Shown in pieces: positions 46,914 through 46,957 of a DNA stretch of 64,000 bases (position 1 is its first letter; each line of letters begins with the position of its first letter). The stretch is taken from the NCBI RefSeq assembly GCF_044324875.1, contig NZ_CP172185.1; one strand, written 5' to 3'. The notes under the pieces were generated by a model. It saw only the letters and a list, made by a program, of their open reading frames with translations. It made no database searches and was not told where the DNA came from. Source of the DNA: Escherichia coli. Its GTDB lineage: Bacteria; Pseudomonadota; Gammaproteobacteria; Enterobacterales; Enterobacteriaceae. The translations under genes were made by a program, and so were the position numbers.

Positions 46914-46957
46914 TGTAGACACAGAATAATTACTCGCCTATCCTCACTGTAGACACA
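46914..46957 (+). promoter_or_regulatory. Direct repeats upstream of the mazE-like gene (candidate operator/promoter)
   Basis: tgtagacaca occurs twice (about 46914 and 46948), 25-60 bp upstream of the antitoxin start. Confidence 0.35.

Follow-up and report, generated by a model that had tools for sequence, protein, structure and literature searches.

What is the role, if any, of two identical 10-mers that lie directly in front of a gene for a MazE-like antitoxin in Escherichia coli? The question is raised by a stretch of DNA of 64,000 nucleotides (the window), for which a first-pass annotation had noted two such 10-mers, 34 bp apart, upstream of the antitoxin start, and had taken them for operator repeats overlapping the promoter of a toxin-antitoxin operon. 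The pair itself was confirmed by exact matching: TGTAGACACA occurs exactly twice in the 64-kb window, both times on the + strand, with a start-to-start distance of 34 bp, and the copies begin 68 and 34 bp 5' of the antitoxin ATG (Table 1), whereas a search for copies with one mismatch found none elsewhere in the window. In our assessment, which rests on indirect but convergent evidence, these two copies very probably serve as operator boxes for a type II toxin-antitoxin operon of the MazEF-like kind that is predicted to be autoregulatory, an arrangement that is ordinary for this kind of gene pair.

A MazEF-like gene pair

The mazE-like gene that had been noticed downstream of the repeats was identified by profile comparison as a MazE-like antitoxin gene, followed by the gene for a PemK/MazF toxin. 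The antitoxin-family profile matches the MazE chains in the PDB (1UB4_C/1MVF_D) with an E-value of 9e-6, and the alignment of the antitoxin with K-12 MazE produced by hhalign (probability 95%, E 2.4e-8, 27% identity over 74 columns) indicates homology to E. coli MazE over the full length of the protein. At its N-terminus, the antitoxin has an AbrB/MazE-type DNA-binding domain with a WGNS..R loop; the segment QKWGNSIALR is invariant across the antitoxin family and aligns with K7-R16 of E. coli MazE, the DNA-contact segment mapped by NMR, where shifts are observed upon DNA binding (PMC4333400). The assignment of the antitoxin to the MazE/AbrB fold is based on such sequence profiles; the AlphaFold2 monomer model, built from a 10-sequence alignment, is poor (pLDDT 58.6, pTM 0.27). 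The antitoxin has no Pfam match at E <= 0.01, and members of its family reach only E 7e-4 to PF04014, under the cut-off of that model.

The toxin matches the MazF chains in the PDB with E-values down to 4e-20 and, among the PHROGs, the 'MazF-like growth inhibitor'. Its start codon overlaps the stop codon of the antitoxin gene (TGATG), such that the cognate toxin gene, with its PF02452 match, comes next in the operon and would be translationally coupled to the antitoxin gene. In the comparison with NCBIfam, the antitoxin matches the MazE model with an E-value of 3.5e-4 and 20.9 bits, versus a cut-off of 113, and the toxin scores 92.9 bits with the MazF model, versus a cut-off of 120. Thus, both proteins fall under the equivalog cut-offs, which points to a paralogous MazEF-like family rather than to mazEF itself. 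The PADLOC defence-system models match neither the antitoxin nor the toxin, and a literature search with TGTAGACAC, a version of the box found in Salmonella (see below), returned only unrelated papers among the matches listed and no paper on this cassette.

Table 1. Coordinates of the predicted operator, the MazEF-like gene pair, and associated satellite features in the window
Feature	Position	Strand	Basis
Box 1, TGTAGACACA, predicted antitoxin-binding box, contains -35-like hexamer	46914..46923	+	Exact match; GTAGACA core invariant in 7-sequence alignment
Box 2, TGTAGACACA, predicted antitoxin-binding box over predicted transcription start	46948..46957	+	Exact match; TGTAGA(C/T)ACA in Salmonella
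Extended repeat unit 1, 29 nt	46905..46933	+	Repeat search; flank match 13/19
Extended repeat unit 2, 29 nt, 79% identical to unit 1	46939..46967	+	Repeat search
-35-like hexamer TAGACA, 5/6 to TTGACA, inside box 1	46916..46921	+	Promoter scan
-10-like hexamer TATCCT, 4/6, 17 bp after -35	46939..46944	+	Promoter scan
Shine-Dalgarno AGGAG, 9 nt before ATG	46968..46972	+	Read from sequence
Antitoxin gene, 82 aa, MazE homologue	46982..47230	+	ORF; MazE profile matches
Toxin gene, 114 aa, PemK/MazF family	47230..47574	+	Pfam PF02452 E 1e-24
G+C-rich hairpin between convergent toxin and head-protein genes	47578..47595	.	Scores as terminator on - strand
P2 gpN-like major head protein	47618-48886		
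Second internal integrase	54053-55093		
Satellite primase	55060-57753		
Satellite integrase	60639-61943		
Repeat of the tRNA-Arg(CCT) 3' end, ~17 nt, CTGCAGGG(G)ACACCA	~46741-46760		
tRNA-Arg(CCT), full copy	62080-62154		

Downstream of the toxin gene, the G+C-rich hairpin may end both of the convergent transcripts that meet there.

Extent of the repeat and its expectation by chance

The exact 10-mer pair by itself is weak evidence. There are 17 exact direct pairs of at least 10 nt within 10-60 bp in the window, versus 3.0 +/- 1.7 expected from first-order Markov simulations, and 2.75 chance matches are expected in a 1-mismatch scan of the whole window. Because short exact pairs are common in this DNA, the case for the TGTAGACACA pair must rest on other evidence, namely, on the extended match of the flanks, on the uniqueness of the box cluster within the window and, above all, on the conservation of the box upstream of diverged homologues.

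The 10-mer stood up as a repeat, although its true extent turned out to be longer: the two 29-nt units match in 23 of 29 positions, and in the flanks outside the 10-mer, 13 of 19 positions match (P = 2.5e-4, given the local base composition). When the window is searched for GTA[GT]A[CT]A boxes, the TGTAGACACA pair is the only cluster in the 64 kb. Each 10-mer is a quasi-palindrome of the form TGT-N4-ACA, which would suit a dimer. Two weak additional boxes, AATAGATACA (46959-46968, in the 3' part of unit 2) and TGTATCATTA (46903-46912), were considered and dropped, neither being conserved in homologues. Separately, several of the pairs of at least 10 nt belong to an autotransporter gene (43806-45662, with a 48-bp period), and further exact direct pairs lie inside the satellite described below, at 49611/49651, 53851/53884, and 60018/60043.

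The predicted promoter

The promoter scan yielded TAGACA and TATCCT separated by a 17-bp spacer, a 9/12 match to the consensus in which the -10 is weak. This is the only promoter-like site on the + strand in the DNA that is common to the two insertion contexts of the cassette, tRNA-Arg and hpt (see below), and TAGACA is present in every homologue that was aligned. In each of the 8 versions checked (8/8), it is followed at a distance of exactly 17 bp by a TAnnnT hexamer, despite a 5-bp indel: the spacer between the boxes is longer by 5 bp in Salmonella and on the plasmid, and yet TAATGT is located 17 bp after TAGACA. Box 2 starts 3 to 8 bp 3' of the -10, over the expected start site, and transcription in the window is predicted to start at ~46950-46952, inside box 2. 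The proposal that the repeats overlap the promoter of the toxin-antitoxin operon thus agrees with the promoter predicted from consensus and conservation, in that box 1 covers the -35 and box 2 is positioned at the predicted start. Part of the conservation of box 1 could be due simply to its serving as the -35.

Conservation of the box upstream of diverged homologues

The comparison set consisted of ten loci of the family, viral-contig relatives, and K-12; the ten upstream regions, of 100 nt each, come from E. coli satellites, plasmids, Salmonella, Photorhabdus, Sodalis, and metagenomes. GTAGA(C/T)A is present in all ten (10/10), and GTAGACA is the most widely shared 7-mer; in shuffled upstream sequences, the probability of finding GTAGA(C/T)A is 0.029 per region for at least one occurrence and 0.0005 for at least two. 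Most of the ten regions have two boxes. In an alignment of seven promoter sequences from E. coli, plasmids, and Salmonella, no position of the GTAGACA in box 1 varies and box 2 is almost constant, whereas the DNA between them is not conserved; around the core, the flanking DNA of the compared upstream regions cannot be aligned. Altogether, the box recurs upstream of homologues with 39-76% protein identity, across different genomic contexts, while the surrounding DNA has diverged, and this comparative support is strong.

The individual versions of the box vary on this common theme. The Salmonella versions contain (C)TGTAGACAC(A) twice, 39 bp apart; the boxes of the plasmid version are TGTAGACA and TGTGTATACA; in Photorhabdus, we find the palindrome GTATCTAC-TTA-GTAGATAC plus CTAGACAT; and in the metagenomic relative, GTAGATTG and GTAGATAC lie at a distance of 36 bp. 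At the far end of the range, the MazEF pairs of viral contigs (39-41% identity, with a MazF-like gene downstream) are preceded by two TGTnnCTACA boxes with an 11-bp period, TGTATCGACA / CGTATCTACA or TGTTTCTACA / TGTAACTACA, placed directly after or overlapping a -10-like TAATGT/TATAAT. These versions suggest TGTAG-N2-ACA, with the core GTAGAYA, as the general form of the box, which may lie on either strand, as expected of the recognition of duplex DNA by a symmetric dimer. Accordingly, the description of the repeats as direct holds for the arrangement in the window only, given that K-12 mazEF and the distant homologues have boxes on the other strand. Likewise, the exact identity of the copies and their 34-bp spacing are features of the window that are not conserved among the homologues.

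The spacing of the boxes is 34 bp in the window, 39 bp in Salmonella and the plasmid, 36 bp in the metagenomic relative, and 11 bp in the distant ones, and 28 bp also occurs; the 34- and 39-bp spacings differ by about half a helical turn. Hence, a rigid cooperative geometry is not conserved, and the variable spacing argues for flexible bridging or independent sites, as opposed to a fixed helical phase, in whatever complex would form on these boxes.

Within E. coli, box 2 is TGTATACACA in several strains, a change by which a perfect palindrome, TGTATACA, arises; the plasmid relative has this palindrome too. This polymorphism, at 46952 (the fifth base of the box), is linked to an A-to-C change at 46958, 6 bp downstream; its carriers (ETEC1732, K_EC180, P15-25, and one viral contig) mostly have the identical antitoxin protein, and the variant occurs at tRNA-Arg/dsdC insertions as well as at hpt insertions. 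In three relatives, at most one box is present; these are L014 and L015, antitoxin genes beside which no toxin gene was called, and L012. The first of these, in Salmonella enterica subsp. diarizonae (L014 2501-3365), is an orphan antitoxin gene with no toxin and no upstream boxes; next to it, in the same cargo slot of the satellite, lies a canonical MazEF pair (PF04014/PF02452) in convergent orientation.

A mobile cassette that keeps its boxes

Going towards the left end of a P4-like satellite of ~15 kb, which is inserted at tRNA-Arg(CCT), the gene pair is the final piece of cargo. The full tRNA gene and the repeat of its 3' end bound ~15.4 kb of satellite DNA, with the att core ~155 bp upstream of the boxes, and the satellite encodes a primase, Ogr/Delta-like and Icd-like proteins, an integrase, and a P2 gpN-like head protein; neither psu nor sid is annotated in a near-identical record of the satellite. 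The satellite also contains an IS21-type pair (a transposase and a DnaC-like helper, 50345-52763), an insertion that likely accounts for the ~2.6 kb of extra length compared with the satellite in NZ_CP033635; beside this pair, there are direct repeats with a 47-bp period (52779/52826 and 52802/52849).

In other E. coli strains, the same cassette resides in satellites that adjoin hpt and encode a different integrase protein; the homology of these satellites to the window starts at ~46898, just before repeat unit 1. Homologues with 59-76% protein identity are found next to the relaxase gene of conjugative plasmids, in islands of Salmonella, on Photorhabdus and Sodalis chromosomes, and in metagenomes. 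As this distribution shows, the box travels with the toxin-antitoxin cassette and not with the integrase or the insertion site. The DNA between the att core and the cassette (46820-46870) has repeats of its own, TGTRCCCGTTT at 46820 and 46831 (an 11-bp period) and TTCGATTC at 46844 and 46863; since this stretch is replaced in the hpt satellites, these repeats could be arm-type integrase sites or accessory-factor sites.

The chromosome of strain ECCNB12-2 is 100% identical to the window over the 901 bases compared around the cassette (46700-47600). The same strain carries a paralogous pair on the plasmid pTB-nb2 (L004 2939-3593), directly after the relaxase gene, with 76% antitoxin identity and related boxes. 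With a chromosomal and a plasmid copy in one strain, cross-talk between the copies is possible.

A model of autoregulation

The arrangement of the boxes suggests how the operon might be controlled. A sigma-70 promoter (TAGACA, 17-bp spacer, TATCCT) would drive the antitoxin-toxin transcript, with box 1 over the -35 and box 2 over the start site. The MazE-like antitoxin, as a dimer, would bind each quasi-palindromic box via its N-terminal swapped-hairpin domain and thereby exclude RNA polymerase, and a toxin dimer, held by the C-terminal tails of the antitoxin, could bridge two bound antitoxin dimers, so that avidity tightens the repression; this bridging and the gain of affinity are modelled on MazE-MazF and Kis-Kid. 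Loss of the antitoxin or an excess of the toxin would then derepress the operon. In this scheme, we infer the binding of the boxes by the antitoxin, the start of transcription, the repression, and the co-repressor role of the toxin.

Alternative explanations

Could the conservation reflect only the promoter, with copy 1 kept for its -35 and copy 2 fortuitous or derived from a duplication, binding no protein? We consider this unlikely, even though exact short-range 10-mer pairs are as common in the window as noted above (17 versus ~3 expected), box 1 includes TAGACA, and E. coli strains differ in box 2. Box 2 follows the -10, in a place where one would not look for a promoter element, and if copy 2 itself served as a -35, its -10 would fall on the ribosome-binding site; nevertheless, Salmonella and the metagenomic relative have retained box 2, and the plasmid relative has it in the form TGTATACA. 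Moreover, the conserved block of box 1 exceeds the hexamer, extending to (T)GTAGACAC, and the same box is present in the measured MazE sites of K-12 mazEF. The location of the cassette, the last cargo before the left end of the satellite and close to the att core, brings to mind sites that serve the mobile element, because short direct repeats near att sites are typical of arm-type integrase sites; another candidate of this kind would be targets of an Ogr/Delta-type activator. That the boxes are such sites seems extremely improbable, and we reject both versions on context and sequence. The hpt satellites, with their different integrase, keep the boxes although the start of their homology at ~46898 implies that the arm DNA was replaced, and plasmids and Photorhabdus have the boxes too, with no integrase gene called within about 2.5-3 kb; thus, they do not co-vary with the integrase or att type. 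The late-promoter element recognized by Ogr/Delta-type activators is a TGT-N12-ACA dyad, and no such dyad occurs in 46800-46990. A packaging site was considered as well; the P4/P2 cos 19-mer is absent from the window at up to 3 mismatches, which leaves that reading without support.

The boxes might also be thought to act at the RNA level, with copy 2 located in the 5' leader and its ACACACA either cut by a MazF-type toxin or folding into a regulatory structure. We give this explanation very little credence as an account of the pair: copy 1, upstream of the -10, would be untranscribed and yet is the better conserved of the two, and the opposite-strand boxes in K-12 and the distant relatives fit recognition of double-stranded DNA over an RNA motif. 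Its appeal stems from the facts that E. coli MazF cuts at ACA, that part of box 2 would be in the leader if transcription starts at or before 46950, and that PMC5888573 describes post-transcriptional autoregulation of mazEF. Copy 2 could have an RNA-level role alongside that of an operator, a role that would account neither for copy 1 nor for the opposite-strand boxes.

Possible implications of a shared box

If the operator reading of the TGTAGACACA pair is confirmed, the locus becomes one more autoregulated MazEF-like module, with its operator placed; the predicted operator leaves the understanding of toxin-antitoxin regulation unchanged. The broader interest lies in the box. TGTAG-N2-ACA would be common to the operator of E. 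coli mazEF and those of MazE-like antitoxins down to ~40% identity, and could be used to predict the operators of uncharacterised modules of the MazE type.

Furthermore, given that essentially one box is common to the satellite pair, to its paralogue on the plasmid, and to the mazEF of the chromosome, the antitoxins may cross-bind each other's operators. We would rate as doubtful the full form of this conjecture, in which co-resident antitoxins cross-bind operators, gain or loss of one element shifts the expression of the others, and degradation of MazE derepresses the satellite cargo. Were cross-binding to occur, such derepression could follow the degradation of MazE under stress or phage attack, and the host mazEF would be linked to a possible anti-phage or addiction role of the satellite cassette. 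Regulatory cross-talk among the chromosomal, plasmid, and phage-satellite paralogues is a testable question.

Comparison with known systems

Like the systems in the cargo hotspot of P4-like satellites (Rousset 2022, PMC9122126), the cassette occupies a variable cargo slot at a satellite end, and a role in defence is possible. That hotspot lies between psu and int (PMC9122126), whereas here the neighbour is the gene for the P2 gpN-like major head protein, with no psu annotated, and the main text of PMC9122126 does not mention MazF or PemK.

Several relatives of the gene pair offer a comparison at the level of the operator. The antitoxin of chpSB (chpBIK) of K-12 also has the WGNS loop, and the region upstream of chpS (L024 4395-4445) contains CTGTAGCAC and a TTATAC-TTT-GTATAA dyad that recall the box and its TGTATACA variant; the resemblance appears loose, there being no 10-mer upstream of chpSB that matches 7 of the 8 specified positions of TGTAGnnACA. 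The parD (kis-kid) system of plasmid R1 and pemIK of R100 are likewise pairs of the MazEF superfamily. In parD, two separated operator regions lie over the promoter. The toxin analysed here matches Kid weakly (E 4e-7), and the likeness is drawn from the gene pairs. As described in PMC1865072, the antitoxin leads in binding the parD operator, and the toxin:antitoxin stoichiometry adjusts this binding.

The closest parallel in sequence is the operator of K-12 mazEF itself, with its upstream region ...CTCGTATCTACAATGTAGATTGATATATACTGTATCTACATATGATAGCG..., in which the binding of MazE to three sites was measured by ITC (Zorzini 2015, PMC4333400): site c (GTATCTACAATGTAGATTG) with a KD of 0.6 uM, site a (TTGATATATACTGT) with a KD of about 5 uM, and site b (ATATACTGTATCTACATAT) with a KD of 2.1 uM. 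Sites c and b hold the same box (TGTAGAT and TGTATCTACA, respectively) as TGTAGACACA in the window, and one of the Salmonella loci (L006) has as its box 2 precisely TGTAGATACA, of which TGTATCTACA is the reverse complement. The box of the MazE-like antitoxin thus resembles the measured sites of a homologous antitoxin. Many mutations in the K-12 mazEF operator have been reported to have little or no effect on MazEF binding (review PMC4803016), so that the sequence-specific reading of a box by MazE-type proteins is not firmly established. The two operators are further alike in that the promoter contains several boxes, of which one is close to the start site, and in that the partner toxin belongs to the MazF family. 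They differ in layout: K-12 mazEF has an 'alternating palindrome' (Marianovsky 2001; Zorzini 2015) of three abutting sites, c-a-b, in 47 bp, and it is the only one of the two with two promoters, the ATATAT site 'a', and an upstream FIS site, whereas the window has two boxes in the same orientation, 34 bp apart, that straddle one predicted promoter, the -35 of which lies in box 1.
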